Below, piece after piece: positions 1-49,400 of a stretch of DNA of 59,854 nucleotides; position 1 is the stretch's first letter, and the number at the start of each line of letters is the position of its first letter. A model generated the notes under the pieces. It did not search any database. It was not told the DNA's origin and saw only the letters and a program-made list of their open reading frames with translations. Origin of the DNA: a virus (lineage: Duplodnaviria > Caudoviricetes); IMG/VR virus record IMGVR_UViG_3300020352_000627, positions 1 through 59,854 of that record. One strand, written 5' to 3'. The translations under genes and the position numbers were made by a program.

Positions 1-20
1 GGTATAACTTTAGTTGTCAA
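1..20 (-). promoter_or_regulatory. Truncated nested sigma70/sigma28-like promoter
   Basis: Minus strand reads TTGACA-A-CTAAAGTT-ATACC into the window edge, the same layout as the promoter at 1969-2006. Confidence 0.6.
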
Positions 21-60
21 TAGATAAAATTTAAAATATTTTCCGGCGGGCCGGGTCGTG

Positions 61-89
61 TGTAAGTTGTTTGCTAGGAAGGGTTTACG
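61..89. repeat. 11-7-11 quasi-palindrome, copy 1
   Basis: TGTAAGTTGTT-TGCTAGG-AAGGGTTTACG, preceded by GC patch CCGGCGGGCCGGG; right arm identical to copy 2. Confidence 0.7.
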
Positions 90-513
90 TCAACAATACA
101 TATCGTTTCTTATTACCTCCCATTGTTTCCAGCTTTGAGATTTTATGTCGAAAAAATAACGCTGCTTTCCCTTGTATATGTCTGCTGCTTAGATGGTGAT
201 TCATTTCCTCGAATGATATTTTATCTTTACCCTCTACCATCTGATTCCATATAACATCTTTCTGCTCTGATGTAACATACTTAGGATTCATAGGAGTAGC
301 AGTCATACTCTTCATTTTTTGTTCAATTTGTTTCTCTAGAAACTCTGGCGATAGGTCACTCATAATATCAGAGTACTGTTCTTTTATATCCTTTACTCTC
401 TGCTCATATCGTTGGTACTGCTCTATTATCAGTCGATTCTGTATTAGTACTTCTGCCATATCTCTGCACATATCATCTAATGCTGTCAATCTTGTTTCAA
501 AATCCATGATCAT
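85..513 (-). CDS. Hypothetical protein, coiled-coil N-terminus
   Basis: 142-aa ORF with ATGA overlap to the upstream gene. Confidence 0.75.
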   Translation of the reverse strand: MIMDFETRLTALDDMCRDMAEVLIQNRLIIEQYQRYEQRVKDIKEQYSDIMSDLSPEFLEKQIEQKMKSMTATPMNPKYVTSEQKDVIWNQMVEGKDKISFEEMNHHLSSRHIQGKAALFFRHKISKLETMGGNKKRYVLLT

Positions 514-806
514 TCTCCAAATGGTGATGTTTCTGTTTCTGTAAGTGTAGCATATCTTTCAGCCAATGCAACTATTCTTTCCTCACTTCCTGGCTTTCCT
601 ACAGGATTAATCATATTGTCCTTACTGCTAAGATACCTATCATTTACCTTAGCCTGTTCACTCCTTACAATTTCCCGCATAGCTTTCCTATTGAACTTAT
701 GAAGGTTTCCATTCTGCTCAATTCCTTCCCATATCTGTGTGCATTCATCCCAAGCCGCCGATAGGATAGGGTACTGTCTCATTAGCTGTTCTGTGTTACT
801 TGGCAT
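510..806 (-). CDS. Hypothetical protein with PGSEERIxxLxxRY motif
   Basis: Start moved to the ATG at 806 (MPSNTEQ), overlapping the upstream stop; C-terminal motif recalls small Planctomycete PGSxEKxxxLxxR proteins. Confidence 0.65.
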   Translation of the reverse strand: MPSNTEQLMRQYPILSAAWDECTQIWEGIEQNGNLHKFNRKAMREIVRSEQAKVNDRYLSSKDNMINPVGKPGSEERIVALAERYATLTETETSPFGE

Positions 807-1149
807 TATAGCTGTAATCTCCTGTGTCATAGTTTCTAATCTCTTGTAGTCTATCAGCAATTTCAAAATGGTCAAGCCATCCAAATACTTCTACCGCACC
901 ATGTCGCTTGTGTATAGGATGACTCTCTAATACTTTGTACGACATATTAGGATCGGTACCGTGTTTATGCTCTATAATCCAGACTTCAAAGTAGCCGCTA
1001 TTCCCGCCATAACTTTGATCATGATTTGACACAATAGCGCCAAGACCATTAGAGAAAAAATAACGCTTAACATAACGACCTTTCTCCTTCATATATTTGG
1101 AATCAAAATATGTTTCATTTAGTTTTAGTGGGTTTACTTTAGTTTTCAT
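796..1149 (-). CDS. Hypothetical phage protein
   Basis: 117-aa ORF with F-x-NG-x-GA and SYGG-x-x-G-x-FEV motifs typical of small phage early proteins. Confidence 0.75.
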   Translation of the reverse strand: MKTKVNPLKLNETYFDSKYMKEKGRYVKRYFFSNGLGAIVSNHDQSYGGNSGYFEVWIIEHKHGTDPNMSYKVLESHPIHKRHGAVEVFGWLDHFEIADRLQEIRNYDTGDYSYNAK

Positions 1150-1154
1150 TTGTT

Positions 1155-1352
1155 TTATTCCTCAATAATGATCTCGACTAGTTCTACATATCCCAACATT
1201 TTAATCTTGTTAGGAACATATTGCAAGGCTTCTAATTCGCTTCTTGCTGTTACCTTTCCGTGAGCCTGAGAGTCTCCTGTTTCGGCATTAGATGTCCATA
1301 CCCTCCATTCTTTTAATCCTGACTTGTGCCGTATTGGTGTTCCACTTCTCAT
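1155..1352 (-). CDS. Hypothetical protein (65 aa)
   Basis: AAGGAG Shine-Dalgarno before the ATG at 1352 (MRSGTP). Confidence 0.65.
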   Translation of the reverse strand: MRSGTPIRHKSGLKEWRVWTSNAETGDSQAHGKVTARSELEALQYVPNKIKMLGYVELVEIIIEE

Positions 1353-1362
1353 TTTTTTCTCC

Positions 1363-1926
1363 TTATTTGAGTGATAGTCTAACATTTTTCTTGTTTATGT
1401 CAAGCATAATTTCCCGACCAAATTCTTTACAGTGTCGATAGTTTTCAGGGAAAACAATAATTTTTCCGTTGATGGCATTTGATCCCCATAAGTCTACAAA
1501 CTTTTTAGCCTCTGCACCTCCTACCTTAATAACTGTTTTATCATAATCTACGAACACAAAAACAATCATATCAAATAATTCGGTTTTTATTGCATTGAAA
1601 GCATACTTCTTGCTTCTAGTTCCGTCTGCTCTTGCTGTTGTGTTGAGTCCAACCGTTGATGTTTTTACTTCTACACGTTTCCAGCTTTGCCCTATTTTTA
1701 CCTTTAGGTCACAAGAATCAACGCCGCTTAGTAATTTTACCTTGAATCCTAAATCCTCTAATTGTTCCATCACAACGTATTCGCCCATACGTCCAATAGC
1801 TTTAGAATCTCCGGCTTCAACAATTTGCCTTGATGCCTCGTCTGTGTATGCTTGTGTTTTGATCTTGTCATTTTTGTATCGTGCTACTGCTCGGTTACAA
1901 ACTTCTGCTTTTACTTTAGTCGCCAT
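1363..1926 (-). CDS. PD-(D/E)XK endonuclease
   Basis: GxxGE helix, then CDL and VEVKTS catalytic motif. Confidence 0.75.
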   Translation of the reverse strand: MATKVKAEVCNRAVARYKNDKIKTQAYTDEASRQIVEAGDSKAIGRMGEYVVMEQLEDLGFKVKLLSGVDSCDLKVKIGQSWKRVEVKTSTVGLNTTARADGTRSKKYAFNAIKTELFDMIVFVFVDYDKTVIKVGGAEAKKFVDLWGSNAINGKIIVFPENYRHCKEFGREIMLDINKKNVRLSLK

Positions 1927-1968
1927 TGTTTTATTCCTGTTTAGTGTGTGTGAAATCGTCTGGTAATT

Positions 1969-2006
1969 ATATCGGTAATTTTATACTGTGAACTTTAGCT
2001 TGTCAA
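1969..2006 (-). promoter_or_regulatory. Nested sigma70 + sigma28-like promoter
   Basis: TTGACA-N17-TAAAAT (2006-1978) overlapping TAAA-N17-ACCGATAT (1997-1969). Confidence 0.7.
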
Positions 2007-2013
2007 GAGTTAT

Positions 2014-2127
2014 TTATTCTGAAACCTCCTCTTTGATAACTTCGCAATGCTCACCGCAAGCAGTGCAAATATCTTCAAGAACAACATCGGAACCACAGCA
2101 ATCTGAAGTGATAATTAAGTTTAACAT
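2014..2127 (-). CDS. 37-aa Cys-rich putative Zn-binding miniprotein (not in ORF track)
   Basis: MLNLIITSDCCGSDVVLEDICTACGEHCEVIKEEVSE; paralog of 2894-3079 with a similar leader. Confidence 0.75.
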   Translation of the reverse strand: MLNLIITSDCCGSDVVLEDICTACGEHCEVIKEEVSE

Positions 2128-2166
2128 TTTCTTTTCTTTCTATTATTGTTTACTTGTTATATCCTA

Positions 2167-2207
2167 AGTATATATATAGTATCGGAATTTGTCAAGCACT
2201 AATTTAG
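2167..2207 (-). promoter_or_regulatory. Nested sigma70 + sigma28-like promoter with upstream A-tracts
   Basis: TTGACA-N17-TATACT (2195-2167) interleaved with CTAAA-N16-TCCGATAC (2207-2179). Confidence 0.8.
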
Positions 2208-2231
2208 AAATATTTTTATTTTTTTTCTGTG

Positions 2232-2247
2232 TGCAAATATCATGCCA
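2232..2247 (-). promoter_or_regulatory. sigma54-type -24/-12 site
   Basis: TGGCATGATATTTGCA, GG-N10-GC spacing. Confidence 0.65.
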
Positions 2248-2263
2248 TAAATTTTTTTTCTTT

Positions 2264-2279
2264 TGGCACAGCATTTGCT
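2264..2279 (+). promoter_or_regulatory. sigma54-type -24/-12 site
   Basis: TGGCACAGCATTTGCT, GG-N10-GC spacing. Confidence 0.65.
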
Positions 2280-2324
2280 ACTGTTAAGATAGGTAACATA
2301 GGTAACCCGGCCCGGCGGATTGCT

Positions 2325-2353
2325 CCTAAGTCCTTTACTGGTAAGGGTTTACG
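2325..2353. repeat. 11-7-11 quasi-palindrome, copy 2
   Basis: CCTAAGTCCTT-TACTGGT-AAGGGTTTACG, preceded by GC patch CCGGCCCGGCGG. Confidence 0.7.
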
Positions 2354-2601
2354 CTTACTTTATTGCCCCATCGTTTCATCGCATCTACTGTACATGCGTG
2401 AAGGTTATTGTCAAATTTAAATATACCTCCTACCGTTTCAATACTCTCTGTTGCCCAACCCTTACCATCATTCATGTCTTCTCTGTAATAACACATCTCC
2501 TTTCCTTTATAAGTATACATATCTACAACTTTCCTACGCCATCCATGCCCCTTCTTTCTTTCCCATACACTTCCGGTTTCTACTGTAATTATTTTTCTCA
2601 T
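2335..2601 (-). CDS. Hypothetical protein
   Basis: 88-aa ORF with ATGA coupling to the upstream peptide gene. Confidence 0.7.
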   Translation of the reverse strand: MRKIITVETGSVWERKKGHGWRRKVVDMYTYKGKEMCYYREDMNDGKGWATESIETVGGIFKFDNNLHACTVDAMKRWGNKVSVNPYQ

Positions 2602-2681
2602 TTGTATTCCCTAAAAACAAAATTACCAAATAGACAAGCAAACATTATTACGTACATCATACCCAATAACCATTCCGGCAT
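2598..2681 (-). CDS. 27-aa single-TM peptide (not in ORF track)
   Basis: MPEWLLGMMYVIMFACLFGNFVFREYK; GAGGAGG SD, TGATG overlap upstream, ATGA overlap downstream. Confidence 0.65.
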   Translation of the reverse strand: MPEWLLGMMYVIMFACLFGNFVFREYK

Positions 2682-2839
2682 CAGCATACCTCCTCAACAT
2701 CTGAATAAATTTCATCAAACAAATCTACTCCGGTTACTTCGCACCAATCAAGCGGATGGGCGTTGATATCGTCGCAAGGTTCTACCACACCTTCATTTTC
2801 TAGGGCGGCAATTAACAGCTGAGTATTTATATCTAGCAT
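2681..2839 (-). CDS. 52-aa acidic hypothetical protein (not in ORF track)
   Basis: MLDINTQLLIAALENEGVVEPCDDINAHPLDWCEVTGVDLFDEIYSDVEEVC; GGAG SD. Confidence 0.65.
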   Translation of the reverse strand: MLDINTQLLIAALENEGVVEPCDDINAHPLDWCEVTGVDLFDEIYSDVEEVC

Positions 2840-2893
2840 CTCAATTTCTCCGTGGTAAGTGTATCAAAAGTGTACCAAATTTTATTATCCACA

Positions 2894-3079
2894 TCAACTG
2901 CAAAAATAATCTAATCCCTGAGCAGCGTGAACAGCTTCGGAACAATCGTAGTCGATACGATCTTCGATTACTTCACAATGTTCTAAACATTCTGGGCAGA
3001 TGTCCTGATCTGAATGGCAAGGGTATCCGCAGCAATCGGTGGAATAAGTTATTTCGAAATTTTTTGAAGTGTTTAACAT
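2894..3079 (-). CDS. Cys-rich putative Zn-binding miniprotein
   Basis: DCCG...DICPECLEHCEVI; paralog of 2014-2127. Confidence 0.75.
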   Translation of the reverse strand: MLNTSKNFEITYSTDCCGYPCHSDQDICPECLEHCEVIEDRIDYDCSEAVHAAQGLDYFCS

Positions 3080-3117
3080 TTTTAATTCTTTCTAATTTGT
3101 TTACTTGTTATATTTCA

Positions 3118-3157
3118 AGTATATATACTTATTCGGAAAAGTCAAGGGGTAATCTTA
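3118..3157 (-). promoter_or_regulatory. Nested sigma70 + degenerate sigma28-like promoter
   Basis: TTGACT-N16-TATACT (3145-3118) with TAAG-N16-TCCGAATA; leader ATATAACAAGTAAACAA shared with the 2167 promoter. Confidence 0.7.
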
Positions 3158-3165
3158 AAAAATTT

Positions 3166-3321
3166 TTATTTTTTTTCGTAGATTGTATCGAGATAAATTT
3201 CGCTATCTGTTACAACCCACCCATATTCACACGTGCTAGTATATGTACCTATGTACAGTTTACCATTGTCGTATCCTTCGTATCCTACAAACATACTTAA
3301 TAGTGTGGCGATTGTCAACAT
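3166..3321 (-). CDS. 51-aa hypothetical protein (not in ORF track)
   Basis: MLTIATLLSMFVGYEGYDNGKLYIGTYTSTCEYGWVVTDSEIYLDTIYEKK; GGAG SD. Confidence 0.65.
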   Translation of the reverse strand: MLTIATLLSMFVGYEGYDNGKLYIGTYTSTCEYGWVVTDSEIYLDTIYEKK

Positions 3322-3356
3322 TGTATTTCTCCGTGTGTTATTGTTACCTATATATA

Positions 3357-3384
3357 ATATCGGCTTGTCCAGGCGGAAACTTTA
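3357..3384 (-). promoter_or_regulatory. sigma28 (FliA/SigD)-like promoter
   Basis: TAAAGTTT-N12-GCCGATAT, near consensus. Confidence 0.75.
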
Positions 3385-3445
3385 CAACAAAATAGATTTT
3401 TTCTCGTATACCCCTCAAAAGAACTAGCCGGGGGGTTGGAAAACA

Positions 3446-3474
3446 TGTAAGTACTGTCCTATCAAGCACTTATG
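3446..3474. repeat. 11-7-11 quasi-palindrome, copy 3
   Basis: TGTAAGTACTG-TCCTATC-AAGCACTTATG, preceded by GCCGGGGGG. Confidence 0.55.
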
Positions 3475-3605
3475 GTAGGGGGGTTTTTATAAACGCAAGA
3501 TAAACAGGGTATTGGTATGAAAAATCGCGGGGTGGTACATACACAATAGGCGCCACCATATATAATTGGCCAGTTTATTAGCCAGTTACTATTTATGTTT
3601 TATTT

Positions 3606-3632
3606 TCATCGACGACATACCGAGATGCTTTA
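3606..3632 (-). promoter_or_regulatory. Possible sigma28-like promoter
   Basis: TAAA-N15-GTCGATGA. Confidence 0.4.
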
Positions 3633-3650
3633 ATTCTATTGATTTTATTC

Positions 3651-3656
3651 GGTGTA
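3651..3656 (+). promoter_or_regulatory. RGTGTA late-promoter-like motif
   Basis: GGTGTA plus AT-rich tract about 50 nt before the ATG at 3703; recurs before seven other rightward operons. Confidence 0.6.
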
Positions 3657-3702
3657 TTTACTTTTGTAACTAGATTTTATTAACAATTATAAGAAACAAA
3701 CA

Positions 3703-4545
3703 ATGGCAGATACAAGCAACGCATATTCCTCAGAAGGCTTTAATAGACAGAAGCAGTTTTCTGGTTTAGATGCTAGAAAACCTGAAAATCTAGAGATATA
3801 TTATGACACTAATGATTACTATACAGATCCTCAGTACGTTAGTATTCTTAGAACTTTTGTTGACACAGTAGGATTCAATTATCCCAAAGAAAGTTCTGTG
3901 GTTTTTCCAGCGCCTGAGCATGCAGAAGGACTTAGAGCTTCTGGAGTACCTGTTTTTCAAATCTACGACAACTCTATTAGCATCGATAACGCAGGATCGT
4001 CTTACGAAATATATGATTCATTTAATATATTATCGGATAATCAAGAAATAGGATACGTTGTTGTTAGTGAAACAGGCGTAGGCGGATCTATTTCAGGCCT
4101 AGGAGCAAGTAGCTCTCAAGTATATGCTTCGTCTCTTAATAATCTTTCTATTGTCTCGAACACAGACAATCAGTCTGCACAACTATCTGTCAACAACAAT
4201 TTTTCTATAACAGCAATTACTATGACATCTCCAGGCTTGGGATACCAAACAGTAAGTAGTACCACAGCAACTCCCATATCTCATAATGTTGTTTTATATC
4301 CTTTTGCTGCCACAGAACACACTAGTCAAAACACTACTGATTTTTTAGATTATTTTGATAATTTACTTGACAATAATATTGATCATACTGCTGCTGTTAT
4401 TAGAGAAAGCAAAGATCCGTTCATACAATATACCGAAATAGATCTTTCAGATTCTATAAGAGAGTGTGTACTCAATGATATTAATAAAGTAAACCATTTA
4501 GGATTACACGATTACACAATTGTTCAAAACTTTTCCCTTGGTTAA
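3703..4545 (+). CDS. Hypothetical, possibly virion-associated protein
   Basis: 280 aa; I-x-I-xx-x-G-x-x-Y beta repeats (ISIDNAGSSY, ITMTSPGLGY) as in phage structural proteins. Confidence 0.65.
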   Translation: MADTSNAYSSEGFNRQKQFSGLDARKPENLEIYYDTNDYYTDPQYVSILRTFVDTVGFNYPKESSVVFPAPEHAEGLRASGVPVFQIYDNSISIDNAGSSYEIYDSFNILSDNQEIGYVVVSETGVGGSISGLGASSSQVYASSLNNLSIVSNTDNQSAQLSVNNNFSITAITMTSPGLGYQTVSSTTATPISHNVVLYPFAATEHTSQNTTDFLDYFDNLLDNNIDHTAAVIRESKDPFIQYTEIDLSDSIRECVLNDINKVNHLGLHDYTIVQNFSLG

Positions 4546-4563
4546 CAATCACAGGAGCTAGCA

Positions 4564-5865
4564 ATGCCCCAACAACCACCATCAGTAAAAGGCCCATTTT
4601 TTCCCACATTCCCTCCTCCCGACACAACCAATACTGGCAATCCTTCTTCAGGAGGTCTTGCCCATCTTTTTTGTTCTTGGACTGAAGAAGTCGAAGTCTG
4701 CGAAACAGGAGTAGCCCAATGTGCTGGAACTTGGTCAGCTGCTAGTAGCGCCGGAGGATCAAGCGGCGGCTCACTAAGTAATGGTTCTTGTGACATTAAT
4801 GTATCTTTTGATTTAGCTTGTGATACTCCTCAAGCTATTAATGTAACAGCTAATTGTTCAGATGGCACAACCGTTGTATTAGATGAATACTATTGGCCAG
4901 GAAAACCAACTAATAGTAGTGAAGGCCAATATTATGTAGTTTGTCAATGTGACACCTCCGAATGCTCGGAAGAAGGAGGACTAGGATCAGATTACTGTGA
5001 TCAATTTGAGAGTGGTCCTTATGCTACTGAGGCTGAAGCCATCGCAGCTGTGCCATCCTATGATGGAACGTGCAGTTGTACAGCCACAACAACACCATGT
5101 AGTGACACAGCATATAACAAGACGTTCACAAATGTATGTGAAACAGCTCCTCCTGTAAATTGCAGAATGGTAGAGATACCAGGTAGTTGGTCAGACATGA
5201 TACCTCTGACTGCTTCATGTGGGTGGACTGTTCTTGCTGGAGCATCTGAGGTAGACAAAAATATATTTTTTGCGAAAGTAGCACAACACCTCATAAACAA
5301 TAACCCAGGTTTAGTGCAAATTATACGAATACACTTGAAGGTAGGCTTATCTGCGAGTGACACTAGTGCTGTCATGCAATTCTTAAAGTTGATGAAAACA
5401 ACAAGTGGATCGAAGTGTCTTTTGCAACCACCACCAAATTTCTCCGATAGTTCTGTTCTTAGAGCCATATCAGATGCTGTTGCTAAACATCTAAATCAAA
5501 TGGGAAAAGGAGCCCCAAAACCACCAACTGGAGGCGGCATAAATTTTGGTCTTCCTGTGATGATCATCATGCCAACACTAGATATGTTACACGAAAAACT
5601 TAACGAACAAATGAATCAATTTAATAGTTTCGACGACGTTAAGTGCGCTATGAATGTAAATCCTGGAGGAGGCGGTATAGGAACAACTGTCGGACCAGGT
5701 AATCCAGGTTTATCTTTACCTTTAAATAGTGTTGTTAAATCTTCATCTTCTGGATCAAGTTTAAATCAATCAACAAAAAACAACATTTTACTACATATAA
5801 ATAACGGATTCCCAGCACTAAATGGAAGACTATCACTCAAGACACCCAAAGCAGAATATCTATGA
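4564..5865 (+). CDS. Cys/Ser/Gly-rich hypothetical protein
   Basis: 433-aa ORF with many Cys in the N-terminal half. Confidence 0.7.
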   Translation: MPQQPPSVKGPFFPTFPPPDTTNTGNPSSGGLAHLFCSWTEEVEVCETGVAQCAGTWSAASSAGGSSGGSLSNGSCDINVSFDLACDTPQAINVTANCSDGTTVVLDEYYWPGKPTNSSEGQYYVVCQCDTSECSEEGGLGSDYCDQFESGPYATEAEAIAAVPSYDGTCSCTATTTPCSDTAYNKTFTNVCETAPPVNCRMVEIPGSWSDMIPLTASCGWTVLAGASEVDKNIFFAKVAQHLINNNPGLVQIIRIHLKVGLSASDTSAVMQFLKLMKTTSGSKCLLQPPPNFSDSSVLRAISDAVAKHLNQMGKGAPKPPTGGGINFGLPVMIIMPTLDMLHEKLNEQMNQFNSFDDVKCAMNVNPGGGGIGTTVGPGNPGLSLPLNSVVKSSSSGSSLNQSTKNNILLHINNGFPALNGRLSLKTPKAEYL

Positions 5866-6230
5866 ATAACTCTTACTATATAAAAATAAACCATAGCATT
5901 CAATATACGGCTAGAAAATCTACGCAAACAATATCAGTAAATTCTACAGCCCCACATAGAACCTTCCAACAAAATAATACCATGGTTATGGGTCCCAAAC
6001 AAATTATTACTCCTGTTGATATCGAAGAATACATAAGAAATTCTAGAAGAATAGTACCTAATAGTATAGATGAAGCAGTAAAAGGAGCTAGACCTGGAGT
6101 ACACTACTTATTACAAAAATCTTTTTATCCTGAACCTACGCCTACTTCCCAAAATACCAGACAAGGAATAGTAGTCACAGATAATAATATAAACTTTCAG
6201 CCTGGACAAAAAGGACTATTATCTTCATAG
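5862..6230 (+). CDS. Hypothetical protein
   Basis: 122-aa ORF with ATGA overlap. Confidence 0.65.
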   Translation: MNNSYYIKINHSIQYTARKSTQTISVNSTAPHRTFQQNNTMVMGPKQIITPVDIEEYIRNSRRIVPNSIDEAVKGARPGVHYLLQKSFYPEPTPTSQNTRQGIVVTDNNINFQPGQKGLLSS

Positions 6231-6242
6231 GTCTTATATGAT

Positions 6243-6668
6243 CTATGATTGATACATATGCGCCCCATGATGCTCGAACCCTAAGGAGCTATAAAAAGGA
6301 ATCAAGTATTCTTCGCAGTTAAGCTTTACCTTGTAGCAGTTATTATCTTTCGCGCCCTTAATACAATGTTCTACAATTTGCTTTCCGTAGCCTTTGCCTC
6401 TGTCTTCTAATCTTGTAGCAACATCTTCTATATGACAGCACATCTTATTATATCTTAATTTAACTTCCAATACTATTGTAGCTGTAGCTACTACACGATC
6501 TTCTTCTATTCCTAAATACGTAATTATATTTCTTCTACGCGCTACAGCATCTCTTACAGCTTCAACATTCTGCACAACACAATCTGAATTATTTAAAACG
6601 CTAATACATTCCATGTATCCTTTTATATAATTTTCATCTGTGTCTTTGTTAAGTATAATTATATTCAT
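6243..6668 (-). CDS. Glucosamine-6-phosphate N-acetyltransferase (GNA1-type GNAT)
   Basis: HIEDV, RGKGYG acetyl-CoA loop, CYKxxLxC and FYxxxGF motifs; coupled to glmS. Confidence 0.8.
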   Translation of the reverse strand: MNIIILNKDTDENYIKGYMECISVLNNSDCVVQNVEAVRDAVARRRNIITYLGIEEDRVVATATIVLEVKLRYNKMCCHIEDVATRLEDRGKGYGKQIVEHCIKGAKDNNCYKVKLNCEEYLIPFYSSLGFEHHGAHMYQS

Positions 6669-8482
6669 TCAACAGTAACACTCTTTGCTAAATTTCTTGG
6701 TTTGTCAACATTACATCCTCGACCTTCCGCACAATGCAAAGCGAATAGCTGTAATGGAACTAAAGACATAAATGGAGTAATTATGTCATCGCATGACGGA
6801 ACCTTTATATTATACTTTCCTATATTATCATCATTGTCGTGATTCAATATAGCTATAATCTGACCGCCCCTAGATTCTATCTCCATCTTATTATTTAAAA
6901 TCTTATTATATTCTTTACTATGGTTCGCTATTACTACTACAGGCATCTTATTATCAACTAAAGCTATAGGCCCATGTTTCATTTCTGCTGCCGGATATCC
7001 TTCAGCGTGTATATAAGATATCTCTTTTAACTTTAAAGCGCCCTCTAGAGCTATTGGAAAGTTATAACCCCTACCTAAAAACAAACAATTCTTTTTATTA
7101 TAAAACCTTTCAGCCAACCCTCTTAATTCTGCACAATCTTTAATAGCTTCTGTCATTAGTATGGGTAAATCTTTTATACTATCTATAACCTTTTTTCTTT
7201 TACGTAAATCTGTATGATTCGTAGTTTGATCTATCATTAGAGCTAATAACAATAATGATAAACATTGATTTGTAAAAGCTTTGGTACTAGCAACTCCTAC
7301 TTCTATACCGCATCGTGTATAAATTCCACACTCTGTCATCTTACTTATTTGTGAATTAATAGTATTACAAATTCCTATCGTAATAGCACCTTTTTCTTTT
7401 GCTAATCTCAAAGCAGCAATAGTATCTGCTGTTTCTCCTGACTGAGATATGCCTATTACAATATCTCCGTTTTCAATGACAGGATCTCGATATCTAAACT
7501 CACTTGCATATTCTACATTTATTCCTACTCCTGCTAACTCTTCTATATAATACTTACCCAATAAACCAGCATGCCAACTAGAACCACAACCTAAAAGTGT
7601 AATCCTTCTAGCTCTAATAAACATTTTCTTATTATCAAAACCGCCCAGTTTAATCTTATAGCCATCTATTCTGCCTAACAAACATTCACTAATAGCCTTT
7701 GGCTGCTCATGTACTTCTTTTAACATAAAACTAGAATAATTTTCTTTAGTAATTTCATATGCGTGATTATATACTTTTTCTAGATTGCATTGTGTAACAT
7801 CCTTAACATTACTATCATAGTGTTCTATCTTGTCTTTTTGTATCTTGGTTATATAACCATCCTCTAGAGAGATAATATTATGAGTATCTTTATTAAATGC
7901 ACTTACATCGCTGGCTATATAATAGTTATTGTCTTGTACCCCTATACACAAGCTACTTCCTTTCTTGGCACATACTAATGTATCAGGGTTTTGTTGATCT
8001 AATAGGATAAAAGCATATGCCCCTACTACTTTTTCTGTAGCTATCTTTACAGTATTAAATAAGTCCCCCACACCTTGAAGCACATCATATATTAGATATA
8101 GCAATATTTCAGAATCCGTATCTGAATTAATTGTATATTTGTCTCCCAAACTATCCTTTATTTCTTTATAGTTTTCTATGATTCCATTATGAACCAAAGC
8201 TAGGGAGTTATTATATGTTACATGAGGATGAGCATTTCTTTTACAGGCTTTACCATGCGTAGCCCACCTAGTATGACCTATTCCTATATTTCCGGTATAT
8301 TTCTTAGAAACATCCAAATCTTCTATACTACCACTTTGTTTGAATGTTTTTATCTGACCGTCTTTTTTATTTATAAAGGATATACCTGCGCTATCATACC
8401 CTCTATATTCTAATCTTTTTAAACCTTCTATTAAAAAAGGTACAGCGTTGTCTTTTCCTAAATAACCTACTATTCCACACAT
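6665..8482 (-). CDS. glmS: Glutamine--fructose-6-phosphate aminotransferase
   Basis: MCGIVG, LEYRGYDSAG, GHTRWATHG, SQSGETADT, C-terminal PRNLAKSVTVE. Confidence 0.98.
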   Translation of the reverse strand: MCGIVGYLGKDNAVPFLIEGLKRLEYRGYDSAGISFINKKDGQIKTFKQSGSIEDLDVSKKYTGNIGIGHTRWATHGKACKRNAHPHVTYNNSLALVHNGIIENYKEIKDSLGDKYTINSDTDSEILLYLIYDVLQGVGDLFNTVKIATEKVVGAYAFILLDQQNPDTLVCAKKGSSLCIGVQDNNYYIASDVSAFNKDTHNIISLEDGYITKIQKDKIEHYDSNVKDVTQCNLEKVYNHAYEITKENYSSFMLKEVHEQPKAISECLLGRIDGYKIKLGGFDNKKMFIRARRITLLGCGSSWHAGLLGKYYIEELAGVGINVEYASEFRYRDPVIENGDIVIGISQSGETADTIAALRLAKEKGAITIGICNTINSQISKMTECGIYTRCGIEVGVASTKAFTNQCLSLLLLALMIDQTTNHTDLRKRKKVIDSIKDLPILMTEAIKDCAELRGLAERFYNKKNCLFLGRGYNFPIALEGALKLKEISYIHAEGYPAAEMKHGPIALVDNKMPVVVIANHSKEYNKILNNKMEIESRGGQIIAILNHDNDDNIGKYNIKVPSCDDIITPFMSLVPLQLFALHCAEGRGCNVDKPRNLAKSVTVE

Positions 8483-8550
8483 ATCTGTCGATTGTTCCTC
8501 TAATCTTTCGTGTCATATACTCTGCATCGACGACTTAGCTTGCAAACTAT

Positions 8551-8802
8551 TTATGGATCTAGATTAGGATTGTTTTGGCTTGTAGGTATTCCCTGACTGT
8601 CTGAAATAGCAATAAACTGCTTTCTTCTGCCTTTTGGCTTAACAATCCCTAATTTTCTTCTTTGTCTCCTAATCATACTTGTAGTAACATTACTATTAGA
8701 CATTTGGGTTAATTTACCTGCTAGTTCTACATCGCTCATAGAATCCTTATTTTGCTTAATGAACTCCAACTCAGAATTTTGCCATTTTTTATAAGTGGCC
8801 AT
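8551..8802 (-). CDS. Small helix-turn-helix DNA-binding protein
   Basis: KKW-xxx-E-xx-FI...ELA...RRKLGI pattern. Confidence 0.65.
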   Translation of the reverse strand: MATYKKWQNSELEFIKQNKDSMSDVELAGKLTQMSNSNVTTSMIRRQRRKLGIVKPKGRRKQFIAISDSQGIPTSQNNPNLDP

Positions 8803-8829
8803 GTTTTGTCCTTTTTCGTGTAAATTATA

Positions 8830-8860
8830 TTGACTACTTTAAGTTACATGTTACTATAAT
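8830..8860 (+). promoter_or_regulatory. sigma70-like promoter upstream of the phage sigma operon
   Basis: TTGACT-N16-TACTAT with extended -10 TG; overlapping TATAAT. Confidence 0.55.
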
Positions 8861-8892
8861 AAATAATTGATCACTTTGAGCAAGGAGAAAAA

Positions 8893-9138
8893 ATGCAACC
8901 ATTTGAAGGCACGCCGTTAGAAACAGTACTACATACAAAGGCCTCCAAAGACTTAGATGTATCACTAGATTTGGAAGCTAAATCCACTGCATCCATAAAT
9001 GAATTACTAAATGACCAAAAAAACAAAAGTAACGAAACAGACGAAGAAGATAACGAGGAACACACAGAAAGCTCTCAAGAAGACACAGAAGAATCCGACC
9101 AAGAATCAATCTCTTCCGAAAGAGAAAAAACACAATAA
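8893..9138 (+). CDS. Acidic hypothetical protein
   Basis: AAGGAG SD; 81 aa; overlaps the next ORF by 128 nt. Confidence 0.6.
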   Translation: MQPFEGTPLETVLHTKASKDLDVSLDLEAKSTASINELLNDQKNKSNETDEEDNEEHTESSQEDTEESDQESISSEREKTQ

Positions 9139-9784
9139 AGATTCTTACTTAAATGGTGTCTGCGAGAAAGAGTTTCTGGAAGCACTCGAAAATATCACAA
9201 AAAGATTGGCCATAAAATTTAAATTTGGATACCACGAAATTGAAGATATGAAACAACAAGCAGCTATATTTGCTATAGAAGGCTTGCAAAATTACGACAA
9301 AAGCAGACCATTAGAAAACTTTCTTTGGACACACGTTAGAAATCGCCTATTTAATTACAAGCGTAATAATTATCAACGTCCAGATAAACCCTGTCAATCT
9401 TGCCAATTCTTCGACAAACACTACGCTAAATCTGACAATCAATGCACAGAGCATAAGGATAAACTAAACTGTGAACTATATGCCTCTTGGTTTAATCGTA
9501 ATGACGCCAAGAAGAACATAATGCAACCACAGTATATATCTGAAAATCAGAATATTACATCTTCCCTCACAAAGGACTCATTCCTGCAAAACCTAGAAAA
9601 CAAAGAGATTATAGGATTTCTAGATGACAATGTAGAGTCACAATATAGAGAATCATACCTTAAACTTAAACATGGAGCTAAAGTACCTAAATCTGAAGTA
9701 GTTAAATTACAGAAGTATATTGAATCCCTTATAGAGAACTTTAAATGTCTAAATCAAAAATCCCCAAAAAAAGAGGCCAATTAA
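9011..9784 (+). CDS. Phage RNA polymerase sigma factor (sigma70 region 2-like) with Cys4 insert
   Basis: EDMKQQAAIFAIEGLQNYDKSRPLENFLWTHVRNRLFNYKR fits region 2.2-2.4; start uncertain. Confidence 0.75.
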   Translation: MTKKTKVTKQTKKITRNTQKALKKTQKNPTKNQSLPKEKKHNKDSYLNGVCEKEFLEALENITKRLAIKFKFGYHEIEDMKQQAAIFAIEGLQNYDKSRPLENFLWTHVRNRLFNYKRNNYQRPDKPCQSCQFFDKHYAKSDNQCTEHKDKLNCELYASWFNRNDAKKNIMQPQYISENQNITSSLTKDSFLQNLENKEIIGFLDDNVESQYRESYLKLKHGAKVPKSEVVKLQKYIESLIENFKCLNQKSPKKEAN

Positions 9785-10564: not shown

Positions 10565-11569
10565 ATGAAAACAGCTTTAGTAAGCGGAATCACAGGACAA
10601 GACGGATCATATCTGGCAGAGTATCTACTAGAATTAGGATACAAGGTAGTAGGTCTACATAGAAGATCTAGCAATAATAATACTAGCAGAATAGATTCTT
10701 TTTTGCGGCATACAAATTTCATTCTTAATGAGTTCGATTTGACAGACCCTTCAGATTGTGGTTCCACGCTTAAAGAGTATCAGCCTGATGAATTTTATAA
10801 TCTAGCCGCACAGAGTCATGTAGGAACCAGTTTCAAACAGCCTACAACTACGTTTGAAATAAATGCCGTAGGTGTCACAAATGTCTTAGAATCTATTAGA
10901 TTGCATTCTCCGCACACTAGATTCTACCAAGCTAGCACAAGTGAGATGTTTGGGCGAAATTATTTAGTTGATGCAGATGGAGAGAAATATCAAAATGAAG
11001 AAACTCATATGCTTCCTCAGAGCCCATACGCGTGTTCTAAACTGTGCTCTCACCATATGGTACACATATATAGACACTCTTACGACTTGTTTGGTTGTAG
11101 CGGTATACTATTTAATCACGAAAGTCCTCGCAGAGGATCCAATTTTGTCACAAGAAAAATTACTATATATTTAGCAAAATTGATTAATGGACTAATTAAT
11201 AAAGATGAAAAATTAAGACTAGGTAATATTAATGCGTATAGAGATTGGGGTCACGCTCAAGATTATGTTAAATCTATGCATATGATGTTAAATTACGATA
11301 AACCCGATGATTATGTCATCGCAACAGGAAAAACCCACAGTGTCAAAGATTTCCTAAAAGAGGCTTTTCAATTATTCGATATGGATTATAATGACTATAT
11401 AATGATTGATCCCGCCTTTTACAGGCCTTGTGAGGTAGAATTTCTGAAAGGAGATTCTACTAAAGCTAAAGAGACTCTTGGTTGGCAGCCGGAGTATGAT
11501 TTTAAGAAGTTAGTGGCCAATATGGTGTATAGTGATTTGGAAGCATTTAAAAATGAAAAGAAACTTTAA
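10565..11569 (+). CDS. gmd: GDP-mannose 4,6-dehydratase
   Basis: GITGQDGSYL, NLAAQSHV, QASTSEMFG, FNHESPRRG, RDWGHA. Confidence 0.97.
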   Translation: MKTALVSGITGQDGSYLAEYLLELGYKVVGLHRRSSNNNTSRIDSFLRHTNFILNEFDLTDPSDCGSTLKEYQPDEFYNLAAQSHVGTSFKQPTTTFEINAVGVTNVLESIRLHSPHTRFYQASTSEMFGRNYLVDADGEKYQNEETHMLPQSPYACSKLCSHHMVHIYRHSYDLFGCSGILFNHESPRRGSNFVTRKITIYLAKLINGLINKDEKLRLGNINAYRDWGHAQDYVKSMHMMLNYDKPDDYVIATGKTHSVKDFLKEAFQLFDMDYNDYIMIDPAFYRPCEVEFLKGDSTKAKETLGWQPEYDFKKLVANMVYSDLEAFKNEKKL

Positions 11570-11840
11570 TGACCCGGTTTATAAAAAATGGCGGAAAGAC
11601 GTTTACAAGAGAGATAAATTCTGTTGTAGATGGCCTAATTGTAAATCTCGTTACAAGATAAATGCACATCATATTAAAACTTGGTCAGACTTTCCTCATT
11701 TGAGATACGAAATAAATAACGGAATAACACTTTGCAAGCAGCATCATGATATGATAAGAGGAATGGAAGATCAATATAGTACAGCGTTTTTAAAAATATT
11801 ATTACAGGATTCTCAGAAAAACAAAGGAAAAAAGAAATGA
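11553..11840 (+). CDS. HNH endonuclease
   Basis: WR-x-x-V-x-x-RD...C..C...HHI...NGITLC..HH. Confidence 0.9.
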   Translation: MKRNFNDPVYKKWRKDVYKRDKFCCRWPNCKSRYKINAHHIKTWSDFPHLRYEINNGITLCKQHHDMIRGMEDQYSTAFLKILLQDSQKNKGKKK

Positions 11841-46456: not shown

Positions 46457-46483
46457 GTATAAGGATTAAGGATATATACTTCA

Positions 46484-49400
46484 ATGGCCAATGCTTTTAA
46501 CTTGACAGCACAGCTTAATCTTAGAGGTCCCTCTAATCTTAAGCCTGTGATAAAAAACATTAAATCACAATTGGGTAATATTAATGCTAATGTTAATTTA
46601 ACAGTAGCAAAAAATAGTAGTGCTAATATAGCAAAATTAAATGCTGGACTAAAAGCCCTTAATAAAACATTAAATACTACAACTGTTACTAGTAGAAATG
46701 CAGCGAATGCTATTAGCAGTTTAGGCACGGCAATTAAAGGGATTAATGCTAGCCAGGTTAGTGCTTCTATTAATAAAGCTACCCAAGCCTCAAAGCAATT
46801 AGCTGCTCAACAGCAAACTGTAAGCAAATCCCTAGCCTCTTCTAGAACAGAAATGGAAGAGTTTGGTAAACAGTCAGGTTTGGCTATTAGAAGATTTGCT
46901 GCGTTTAGTGCCGTAACTGCTGTTGTTTTTAAATTAAATAATGCTATTAATACTGGCGTTAGCTCTTTTATAGAATTTGAACAACAATTCATTAGATTGC
47001 AACAGGTTACAGGAGATAGTGCTCAGTCTTTAAGTAGACTACAAACCTCTATTACTAAACTTAGTACTGGCTTAGGTGTTACTTCTCAAGAATTAAGCCA
47101 AGTTTCTGTTACGTTAGCTCAGGCTGGTTTAAATGCGAGAGAAACAGAAAAAGCATTAGAGGCATTAGCTCTTAGTGCTTTGGCTCCTTCTTTTGATAAT
47201 CTTAACAATACTGTCGAAGGTAGTATTGCATTGATGCGTCAGTTTGGTATTAGTTCCAATGAGTTAGGAAGCGCTTTAGGTAGTATTAATGCTGTTGCGG
47301 CTAGTTTTGCTGTTGAAGCAGGAGACATTATCAAAGCTATTAGTAGAACTGGTGGTGTGTTTGCTAATGCCAGTAAAGGAGTAAGTGAAGGTACAGACGC
47401 TCTTAACGAATTCATTGCAGTATTTACTAGTGTTAGAGCTACTACTCGTGAAAGTGCAGAAACTATTGCGACAGGTTTAAGAACTATTTTTACAAGAATA
47501 CAAAGAGGCTCTACGATAGAAGCTCTTAAAGAGTTTGGAGTTACTCTTACAGACTTAGAAGGTAAATTTGTTGGACCATTTAAAGCTATTCAATTATTAA
47601 GTGAAGGTCTTGGAAGATTAGATCCTAGAGATATTTCATTCTCAAATATTGTAGAAGAGCTTGGTGGTTTCCGTCAAATTGGTAAAGTTATTCCTCTTAT
47701 TCAACAATTTGCTACCGCACAAAGAGCTTTAGGAGTAGCTAATGCTGGACAAGGGTCTCTTGCAGAAGATGCGGCAATCGCTCAATTAAGTTTAGCCAAT
47801 CAAATAGCCAAAGTTCGAGAAGAATTTTTAGGACTGTTTAGAGAAATAGGAGGAAGTGATAGTTTTCAAACAATTGCTAAAGGAGCTTTAGGTTTAGCTA
47901 GTGCTTTAATTAAAATTGCAGATAGTGTTAAAGGCGTTCTGCCTGTCTTGGCTATTATGGGAGCTGCTAAGGGTCTTTCTGCTGTTACACAATTTACTGC
48001 TGGATTTGCAGGAGGTATAAAAAGCGGTGGTGGGGCTAGAGGTTTTGGCTCAAGGATGTCTGGAGCTCCTAGTGGTTTTGCTACAGGAGGTTTGGTTCCT
48101 GGCCAGGGTAATAGAGATACTGTACCAGCAATGCTAACGCCGGGTGAGTTTGTAATTAGAAAAAAAGCAGTTGAAACTATTGGTGCTTCAAAATTAGGAA
48201 GCATGAATAAATATGCTGGAGGAGGCAAAGTACAAAAATTTGCTAAGGCAGGGCCTGTTAGATATAAGGCCGATAGAGGCAGTAAAATGCAAGAAGTTGA
48301 AAATTTAGGAGCTAGAGATGGAGATTCTTGGAGAGTTAATTATATTCCTTCTCCAGATAAGGTCGGTCCCGTCACTACTAGAGCCGTAGGGTATGACGCT
48401 TATGAAATAGGAAAAGGAAAAGGAAGAAAATGGGAAAGAGCTTTAGGTCAAATAGCTACTGATGTTGCAGATAGCGAATTTAAAAAGGGAAGCAGCCAAG
48501 CTTTTACAAAAGGATTTAATGCTGTTGGAGATAAAAACAGATCCATCGGTTCTCGTCCACTACATAATGTAGGTGACGTTGCTAGGGAACTAATTTCTCA
48601 AGGATTAGCTGTTCCTGCTGGATCGAAGGCTACAGGAAGTTCACCACAGCCGACAGATCAACAAATAGCCACACTTAAAACTTTTTCTTTTGAATACGAC
48701 AAAAAAACAGGTAAGACTAAAGGAGGACCTTTAAGACCAGGATTTAATTTAGGGGGCTCGGTACAAAGATTTGAAAATGGTGGAGGTATTAAAGTTGCAA
48801 AAACCGGCAAGGTTACTAAAGCAGCTATAGCAGGAGCAACAACATCACAAATACAATCTTTGCTGACTAATCCGAACGTGCGTAAAAATCCAGCATCGAT
48901 GGCATCATTAACTAAGGCTTTGAAAGAAAAACAACTTCAAGAAGCAGTATTGCCTAAGTTTGCTGTAATTGGACTGAGAGGAAGAAACTTTAACGAAAAA
49001 GTAAAAGCTCCTTCAAGTAAAAAAGCAGTAAATATTATGGGCTCTGTTTTACCAAAAGGTATTGCAGATGCTTATGAAGGACAAATGGCGGACGGTTTTA
49101 CTAAGACAGTTAAAGGCATATCTGGTCAAATTGCAGGTAAAGTTGGAGCTAATGTAATATCTGACACAGAACTTAAAGCAATTATAACAGAAACAGGTTT
49201 TTACAATGCTGTTGGTGCTTATCTTGAAAGTGCTGTCGCTGGAGTTGGTGCTCCTTTTCTAAAATCTTCAATTAATGAACCTATTGATTTTCCTGCCGGT
49301 GTTGGTAATGTTGGTAGTATGTTTGGTATTCCTGGAAATATTCCTACAGATACCACTCGAACTGTTGCTGAGAAAGGCAAAAGTCCTCAAGCGTTTCTTG

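Follow-up and report, generated by a model that had tools for sequence, protein, structure and literature searches.

Paired dyads phased to early promoters in an uncultured clade of marine phages: a repeated gene-end cassette with candidate sites for a dimeric bending protein

Three short quasi-palindromes, each with a GC-rich box at its left, lie among small leftward open reading frames (ORFs) near the start of the virus record IMGVR_UViG_3300020352_000627 (Table 1). The stretch analyzed here, referred to as the window, is this entire IMG/VR record (59,854 bp, CheckV completeness ~40%). We found the three elements (dyad sites 1 to 3) to be reduced forms of a composite cassette which, in a clade of uncultured marine phages, follows one early gene and precedes the promoter of the next, and in which the distance from dyad to promoter is quantised at ~10.5 bp. 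We favor, with moderate confidence, an explanation in which this gene-end/early-promoter cassette carries sites for a dimeric bending protein, one of the IHF/HU type being the most likely. The original prediction for these elements, made from the letters of the window, had offered a tyrosine-recombinase cassette system or, as its second option, a repeated site for a dimeric protein; the phasing and the lack of covariation described below led us to the second, in which binding itself is inferred.

The quasi-palindromes are located where the original prediction had placed them, and its further statements that a GC patch lies left of each copy, that two copies overlap the stop codons of leftward genes and that all three are upstream of leftward promoters were each borne out, with TTGACA-type promoters found downstream of every site. 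The arm geometry is 11-7-11 throughout, with 6-10 of the 11 arm positions complementary, and the GC-rich box is 6-9 nt to the left of each of the three dyads. Sites 1 and 2 share, GC box included, a 47-nt direct repeat (43-89 vs 2307-2353, 70% identical). The -10 of the promoter after dyad 1 falls beyond the window start; it reads TATAAT in the close relative L004. Each window copy comprises one dyad and the GC box, and unrelated sequence occupies the place where the full cassette, as seen in relatives, has its second dyad.

Based on the window alone, the dyad signal is marginal. The consensus of the original prediction gave four strand-matches in the window against 0.74 expected, a comparison that is circular as the consensus was derived from the same sites. 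With a pattern derived from relatives (TAAGTNNTTNNNNNNNAANNACTTA) there were 4 matches at ≤2 mismatches vs 1.37 expected (4 of 100 shuffles reached 4), and 20 vs 13.2 expected at ≤3 mismatches. Using the 187-aa early protein as query we identified one close relative, L004, whose DNA is 92-96% identical to the window over the aligned blocks and reaches 4.6 kb past the window's left end. It contains eight dyads in 7 kb (17 strand-matches vs 1.83 expected, with none of 200 shuffles having as many), among them the orthologue of dyad 1 at 11702, in which the differences are confined to variable inner and spacer positions. An exact-pattern scan of IMG/VR matched at least 120 stretches, many of them clustered, and our family-wide statistics were drawn from the matches listed (121 loci scanned), 41 of which had at least three relaxed hits. 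Among these matches, 419 hits were found in 42 sources (41 loci and the window) having at least three hits each. Complete relatives with a large terminase (TerL) 74-76% identical to that of the window had 23-28 hits at ≤2 mismatches, and reversed-pattern controls in whole records gave 0-7. The hits were concentrated in a small part of each genome, i.e., 23/23 inside 11-9076 of the 150 kb of G004, 22/25 inside 77-95 kb of the 187 kb of G003, and 12/13 inside 124-131 kb of G001; where hit positions were listed (G003 and G004), they fell in a single block of 9-20 kb that contains small genes and tRNAs. The ORFs flanking dyads are mostly without family. From the clustering and enrichment of copies in the relatives we conclude that, despite the marginal signal in the window, the three elements belong to a true repeat family that is clade-wide.

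That the dyad bearers represent one phage clade is evident from the TerL identity (74-76%) of G002, G003, G004, and G006; G001, which is also dyad-bearing, had no terminase match to the window's TerL. The clade's members are long-tailed marine phages with a genome size of 130-230 kb, and none is in culture.

The full form of the cassette became apparent when the copies were compared. Successive dyads show a spacing peak at 53 bp (68 cases), with further spacings of 42 (10), 48 (13), 50 (13), and 58 bp (8). When oriented by their downstream promoter, 45 distinct 53-bp units align gap-free and give the gene-sense consensus CnTAAnnCCTTGnCnnnnAAGGACTTA GGGCAAGnnnGGCCGGCCGnnTTTGnCG TAAGTnCTTATnnnnCAACnACTTA CG, after which there is an A/T-rich stretch and then TTGACA-N3-5-CCGATAAT-N4-5-TAGAAT. 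The order of the full cassette, in gene sense, is a stop codon or tRNA 3′ end, dyad A (TAAaCCCTT-N7-AAGGACTTA), a linker of ~28 nt that includes the GC box, dyad B (TAAGTgCTTat-N4-cAAcgACTTA), the A/T stretch and a sigma70-type promoter (TTGACA ... CCGATAAT ... TAGAAT), with both A/T stretch and promoter being conserved in the relatives' 45 units. Units are found directly after stop codons, and in several loci they are 0-2 nt from the 3′ end of a tRNA gene. When unit orientation was assessed with an ORF-end test the antisense control scored equally high; dyads have TAA on both strands. In most early promoters of the clade the octamer CCGATA(A/C)T is kept 3-5 nt past the -35 (e.g., L008, L022, L030, and window 2180-2195), and in the L072/L007 lineage it is found just past the -10 instead.

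A first line of evidence on the role of the dyads is their distance from the promoter. There were 112 matches to the promoter signature, of which 54 had a dyad ≤70 bp upstream and four had one at 123-131 bp. In the 54 promoters the distance from dyad end to -35 clustered at 19-21 (9 cases), 29-33 (29), 40-43 (9), 53 (1), and 60-61 nt (3), corresponding to a Rayleigh R of 0.80 at a period of 10.3-10.5 bp. After collapse to 20 clusters (intervening sequence <65% identical) R was 0.63 (p ~3.5e-4), a value above all 2000 uniform draws. Window site 1, 42 nt from its -35, fits this phasing. Such helical phasing points to a DNA-bound protein that acts on RNA polymerase or on DNA shape, as neither a terminator nor a recombination site would give it. 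With it, the early genes of an uncultured marine phage clade gain a defined grammar of dyad, GC box, dyad, A/T stretch and promoter, set in helical register.

A second line of evidence comes from the arms of the dyads. The hairpin test addressed a named structure with 11 pairs per dyad, on both strands of the 45 units, relative to column shuffles. Arm pairing was 72.9% on the sense strand vs 73.4% in shuffles (396 of 500 shuffles as high; covariation 0.107 vs 0.109) and 75.6% on the antisense strand vs 76.4% (475 of 500 as high; covariation 0.117 vs 0.123), so that the covariation of the arms was not above column shuffles on either strand. At positions 6 and 7 of dyad B, left free by the search pattern, pairs occur in 10/45 and 7/45 units, with C.C present in 25/45. 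Folding of the units is alike on the two strands (z about -2 and -1.7), the antisense being the more stable in 21/45. Because pairing and covariation do not exceed shuffles and the strands fold equally, we conclude that the palindromic look derives from two conserved half-sites and not from selection for pairing.

The original prediction had also claimed that the sites delimit gene cassettes, and in agreement with this the dyads mark the 3′ border of early units. Relative to L004, the 142-aa ORF whose stop codon is in dyad 1 has been swapped for an unrelated 98-aa ORF, with identity ending 2 nt past the start codon and resuming exactly at the dyad. Neither L004 nor a contig of X10, an independent marine DNA run, has the 88-aa ORF whose stop codon is in dyad 2, and the right junction of this indel is the dyad edge (2353). 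Two of the three window sites are consequently positioned exactly at an indel or replacement border, which is the outcome expected if gene gain and loss among relatives have breakpoints at the sites. X10 contigs contain the joint 2353->2604 of the second case, and also the joints 3584->6417 and 2116->3074. Near site 3, three rightward genes without family (3597-6234, +; 280, 433, and 122 aa) are missing from L004 and from an X10 contig; the junction of this block is ~120 bp from the site, and the inserted block lies in a divergent region. The joint 2116->3074 fuses two paralogous promoter/gene-start repeats and deletes 957 bp, including dyad 2, the repeats being a direct repeat (2119..2227, -, vs 3071-3177; 79-88% identical) that covers the promoter and 5′ end of a small Cys-rich gene. 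Across the 42 sources, 26 of 249 ends of homology blocks are ≤5 bp from a dyad vs 11.3 at random (maximum 24 in 1000 trials), an enrichment in favor of our interpretation that is, however, confounded by breakpoints and dyads both being at gene borders. The dyad edge appears to be a border of homology rather than a cut site, and the best reading is that homologous recombination between cassettes swaps ORFs. A cassette of ~100-150 bp, repeated among unrelated small ORFs, would provide the homology for their swap, loss, and gain by ordinary homologous recombination.

In these respects the element is reminiscent of the PeSL (promoter-early stem-loop) cassettes of T4-type phages, as described in excerpts of Arbiol et al. 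(2010; PMC2839356) and Comeau et al. (2014; PMC4122927). In both systems a composite element of ~100 bp is located between small orphan ORFs of a hyperplastic early region and has a GC-rich element, an A/T-rich stretch and a strong sigma70-type promoter in series; close relatives differ by insertions, deletions, and replacements that have their ends at the element; and recombination between repeated cassettes removes the intervening DNA. There are also clear differences. The phage described here is not T4-like, its TerL being 24% identical to that of Bacillus siphophages and its tape-measure gene being huge. One or two 25-bp dyads adjoin its GC element, a feature absent from those excerpts, and its dyads are phased to the promoter. 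In addition, its GC box is not demonstrably a stable hairpin, as folding of the GC linker did not surpass that of shuffles (z -0.25). We consider the element to be a PeSL-like regulatory cassette that carries dispersed architectural or operator sites. This extends the PeSL idea, repeated regulatory cassettes as a substrate for ORF shuffling, past the T4-type phages.

As to what the dyads do, our favored explanation is that they would act as double-stranded DNA and be bound by an architectural protein that is dimeric and bends DNA, the likeliest being one of the IHF/HU type supplied by the host. Held upstream of the promoter and always on the same face of the helix, this protein would shape early transcription. 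At positions not fixed by our search, the half-site logo reads w-a-t-C before AA-nn-AC-TTA. The half-site skeleton, TAA-N4-TT(G) / (C)AA-N4-TTA, resembles the consensus core of IHF, WATCAANNNNTTR, also given as TAAnnnnTTGATW (PMC10380432, in excerpt). Exact matches to WATCAANNNNTTR were found in 66 of 520 half-sites, relative to an expectation of 1.1% at the four unfixed positions, and an exact core is present in one or both halves of 64 of the 260 dyads. Judged by its letters, then, the dyad looks like two IHF-like cores facing each other. The DNA in IHF/HU complexes has kinks ~9 bp apart, and the TT|G and C|AA steps at dyad positions 8-9 and 17-18 would presumably suit a symmetric dimer of IHF/HU type. 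The setting of the dyads may be another likeness: upstream of promoters and on a fixed helical face, they also occur by sigma54-type promoters and, in bacterial contigs described below, by integrase and DDE transposase genes and DnaA boxes, contexts that would be typical of bending-protein sites. If the binder is a host bending protein, a lytic phage would be recruiting nucleoid proteins to fire many small early units.

Several observations weigh against this explanation. Of the 112 promoter-signature matches, 54 are without a dyad within 150 bp, and in the window neither site 2 (131 nt) nor site 3 (76 nt to the 3371 promoter) has a clear fit to the phasing. Dyads 48, 50, or 58 bp apart are not separated by an integral number of helical turns. 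An exact IHF core is present in the window at site 3 only (the minus-strand half, TAAGTGCTTGATA, matching TAAnnnnTTGATW) and not at sites 1 and 2. The dyad is symmetric, with two facing cores, in contrast to IHF sites, which are normally asymmetric, and the strongly kept G4/T5 (in TAAGT/ACTTA) is outside the IHF consensus. The HU/IHF family (PF00216) was found in none of five phage records, so a host protein would have to act. Sites within one genome are related to each other, and the counts given above are thus not independent events. Lastly, dyad A pairs slightly better on the antisense strand, where G.U replaces A.C at positions 4-5, and it is feasible that dyad A has an RNA role.

Among the alternatives we rank first, while still judging it unlikely, a phage-encoded dimeric regulator, either a repressor that shuts off early promoters or a roadblock, for which the dyads would be operators in the manner of the phiC31 conserved inverted repeats (CIRs), which are dispersed phage operators, the stoperators of L5 and the p4 sites of phi29. 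This alternative shares the DNA-level evidence, phasing and lack of covariation, with the bending-protein explanation. In addition, spacer and inner-arm sequences are genome-specific (e.g., ATGCCAC in L007, GATTTTC in L051, and ATTTTTC in L118), as expected if the sites co-evolve with a genome-encoded protein. The TAAGT-N15-ACTTA geometry is that of the phi29 p4 site (CTTTTT-15 bp-AAAATG; PMC3100819, in excerpt), where paired sites with short inverted motifs 15 bp apart are next to early promoters and bind a dimer with DNA-bending and transcription-switching activity; the two differ in sequence, which is unrelated, and in number, with dozens of sites per genome here vs four in phi29. A position right after gene ends would suit a roadblock, and the excerpts on L5 (PMC9283540) likewise describe many operator copies in the intergenic spaces of one region, some at gene ends. 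However, stoperators are asymmetric 13-mers, and L5 and phiC31 are temperate with a known repressor, whereas the relatives here are without an integrase (PF00589, 0/5 records). Nor could we find a convincing candidate regulator. No early protein family is present in all dyad loci, the best two being in 9/42 and 8/42 sources, and Pfam and PHROGs searches gave no DNA-binding domain among the early proteins, bar a weak sigma70_r2 match. Two conserved early families were modelled with AlphaFold at low confidence only (pLDDT 65/64, pTM 0.30/0.17), and PF05464 (p4) had no match in five records, although the control for this search also matched nothing. The occurrence of the 26-bp dyad in GC-rich bacterial contigs of several phyla suits a cellular factor better. 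One early family, found in L008, L022, L030, L042, L043, L076, L082, and L083, is very basic (56-76 aa) with an invariant R-x-K-R-x-R-T-R; it had no Pfam match and its AlphaFold model was poor.

We consider an RNA-level role improbable. In this alternative the transcript would fold at the dyads and GC box, and the structure would end each early unit by termination, attenuation or processing, like the stem-loop half of PeSL. The position of the units is suitable, being right after stop codons or tRNA 3′ ends and ahead of the next promoter, and PeSL stem-loops (G_N-loop-C_N) are proven terminators (PMC2839356, PMC4122927, in the same excerpts). A genuine GC hairpin, looped by UUCG or GAAG, is present in some lineages (L051, L019), a bacterial copy (L140) has G6-loop-C5 followed by TGTTT, and the plus strand of site 3 is terminator-like (z -2.1, with a T-run). 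Against such a role are the lack of covariation on either strand and the retention of C.C and G.G mismatches in dyad B, in addition to the GC linker and sites 1 and 2, the latter on either strand, folding no better than shuffles. No U-tract was found directly after the dyads or GC box at the window sites. Rfam had no match in the window, and its one match among 11 bacterial loci was sub-threshold and away from the dyads. A terminator would also leave the helical phasing to the promoter unaccounted for. Contigs from an RNA library span site 2 (2252-2630) and site 3 (2719-4052), which is not proof of transcription or read-through; the four sequencing runs consist of contigs only, which cannot show transcript starts, ends, strand or level, and in which uncovered stretches are uninformative. 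The left end of the RNA library X16 contig 2252-2630 is extended by nine T's next to a T8 run in the genome. These extra T's at ~2252 may be the end of a poly(A)-tailed leftward transcript or a homopolymer artefact.

The 26-bp dyad-B pattern (20 fixed bases) is not confined to phage records. In a species-representative genome collection it was present in 18 stretches (L125-L142), seven being low-GC phage-like contigs in bins of metagenome-assembled genomes (MAGs) and 11 being contigs of 54-63% GC, eight of which are labelled Phycisphaerae or Planctomycetaceae (Planctomycetota). Overall the GC-rich dyad contigs carry the labels Planctomycetota, Acidobacteriota, and Gammaproteobacteria. These bacterial dyads have ordinary cellular genes as neighbors, joined in several cases by genes of mobile elements (a tyrosine integrase in L140, a DDE transposase in L136, and ArdC in L137), and in L133 a dyad copy is located between three TTATCCACA boxes (DnaA boxes). 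Some of the stretches resemble ~120-bp elements repeated inside a single MAG (L128, L131, and L138, and likewise L125 and L129). The distribution in bacteria favors a cellular binding factor or a module travelling with mobile elements. It is conceivable, if as improbable as an RNA role, that the dyad is the site of a not-yet-recognised cellular architectural or regulatory protein, wired by the phage clade in phased pairs into every early promoter and, in some lineages, combined with sigma54-type promoters; the grounds are the copies in GC-rich bacterial contigs, beside an integrase, a transposase and DnaA boxes. Such a protein would imply enhancer-like, sigma54-linked control of phage early genes and a cassette that is a portable module common to phages and other mobile elements, and a new factor common to bacterial mobile elements would be of wider interest.

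Sigma54-type promoters are not known to be common in phages. We think it quite improbable, more so than the preceding options, that a bacterial enhancer-binding protein uses the dyad pair as its upstream activating sequence and drives adjacent promoters of this type. Two back-to-back motifs beside site 2 (Table 1) are the only exact TGGCAYNNNNNTTGCW matches in the 59,854 bp of the window (reversed-pattern control, 0). Both have the form TGGCAC-N5-TTGC, with a GG-to-GC distance of 12 bp, the canonical sigma54 spacing. The motif GGCA[CT]-N5-TTGC occurs 63 times in 1.26 Mb vs 10.1 +/- 3.1 in shuffled sequence, a ~6-fold enrichment, and mostly adjoins dyads. It is found beside dyad units in a sub-lineage including L004, L007, L072, L127, and L123, and G003 and G004 have exact motifs inside or at the edge of the dyad block. 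For motifs pointing with the genes, the dyad centres are at -76 to -138, the usual range for upstream activating sequences. However, the commoner arrangement is that of motifs pointing against the genes, which have the dyads downstream, at +15 and +68, and a sigma54 motif is lacking in the majority of dyad units (e.g., L008, L022, L030), which are only 20-41 nt from a sigma70-type -35. Our search of the phage records for an enhancer-binding protein (PF00158) gave weak AAA+ matches (E ~0.005) and no clear candidate, and the two motifs beside site 2 form an inverted repeat that could be something else. Whichever protein is involved, the dyads and the pair of sigma54-type motifs constitute DNA probes with which to fish out the binder and find hosts.

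Site-specific recombination, i.e., dyads moving gene cassettes by a tyrosine recombinase, host Xer or an integron-like system, is very improbable even though the 9/11-7-9/11 geometry of inverted arms around a 6-8 bp spacer resembles loxP, FRT, and dif, integron attC sites are also at the 3′ end of each cassette, the borders of variable ORFs coincide with dyad edges and, in L140, a perfect dyad pair is 75 nt past the tyrosine integrase gene. The original prediction was correct that no recombinase lies in the window (PHROGs, PF00589, and PF00239), and its tyrosine-recombinase inference (Xer/lox-type) did not hold up: the tyrosine recombinase family (PF00589) was absent from the window's record and from all five relatives' records, with a host Xer being outside this search, as was the serine family (PF00239) from the same five, four of which are 95-100% complete and three of these four share the window's TerL. 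Strand exchange of the lox/dif type needs identical spacers, and the 7-bp spacers here differ within a genome (TGCTAGG, TACTGGT, and TCCTATC in the window); moreover, homology stops at the outer arm edge with no junction inside a spacer, one deletion variant joins paralogous promoter/gene-start repeats and not two dyads, the dyads are phased to promoters, and neither the covariation nor the strand-specific fold that attC would show is present.

Table 1. Dyads, GC boxes, promoters, and adjoining early ORFs in the window.
Feature	Position	Strand	Sequence	Remarks
Dyad site 1	61..89 (core 63-87)		TGTAAGTTGTT-TGCTAGG-AAGGGTTTACG	Core arms TAAGTTGTT-N7-AAGGGTTTA
Dyad site 1, gene-sense strand		-	CGTAAACCCTT-CCTAGCA-AACAACTTACA	"PalA" type
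Dyad site 2	2325..2353 (core 2327-2351)		CCTAAGTCCTT-TACTGGT-AAGGGTTTACG	
Dyad site 3	3446..3474 (core 3448-3472)		TGTAAGTACTG-TCCTATC-AAGCACTTATG	
GC box 1	43-55		CCGGCGGGCCGGG	7 nt from dyad 1
GC box 2	2307-2319		CCGGCCCGGCGG	
GC box 3	3428-3435		CCGGGGGG	
Early ORF, 142 aa	85..513	-		No family; stop codon inside dyad 1
Early ORF, 88 aa	2335..2601	-		Stop codon inside dyad 2
Promoter after dyad 1	14..19	-	-35 TTGACA	42 nt past dyad 1
Sigma70-type early promoter	2167..2195	-	TTGACA-N17-TATACT	Has the clade's CCGATA signature, also in relatives
Promoter region downstream of dyad 3	3290..3371	-	TGGACAAGCCGATA... (3371..3343); TTGACA-17-TATGTT (3318..3290)	
Sigma54-type -24/-12 motif	2264..2279	+	TGGCACAGCATTTGCT	Points toward dyad 2
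Sigma54-type -24/-12 motif	2232..2247	-	TGGCATGATATTTGCA	Points with early genes; dyad 2 centre at ~-118 of predicted start

Small leftward ORFs, nearly all without family, fill bases 1-3350 of the window, and the rightward structural genes start at ~9.7 kb. ARAGORN identified no tRNAs in the window. Bases 1-6000 had no near match in a phage collection searched for cultured relatives, and the 280-aa protein at 3703-4545, used as query, found no relatives. The TerL and GlmS-like proteins have only distant matches in cultured phages, the closest for TerL (24% identity) being in the Bacillus siphophages mentioned above. Within the early block there are two paralogous small Cys-rich ORFs of 37 and 61 aa (2017-2127, -, and 2894-3079, -), each with a copy of the promoter and leader. 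A 52-aa protein (2681-2839, -) with 14 acidic and no basic residues is kept in seven sources (six loci and the window); that it might be a DNA mimic or anti-restriction-like early protein is a guess only.

Early and structural blocks are separated by sugar-metabolism genes (6243-8482, -, and 10565-11569, +) for a GlmS-like amidotransferase, an acetyltransferase and a nucleotide-sugar epimerase. The GlmS-like amidotransferase (605 aa) has ~40% identity to cellular and phage GlmS. Heading the rightward block is a 257-aa ORF (9011-9784, +) that weakly matched Sigma70_r2 (20.8 bits vs a cut-off of 24) and whose family is the most widespread in dyad loci (9/42 sources); it may encode a phage sigma-like factor. 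The right end of the window (46463-59854, +) is a single frame of >4464 codons that runs off the end of the record and has a PhageMin_Tail (PF10145) domain and tape-measure PHROG matches; such a large tape-measure protein would imply a tail of exceptional length.

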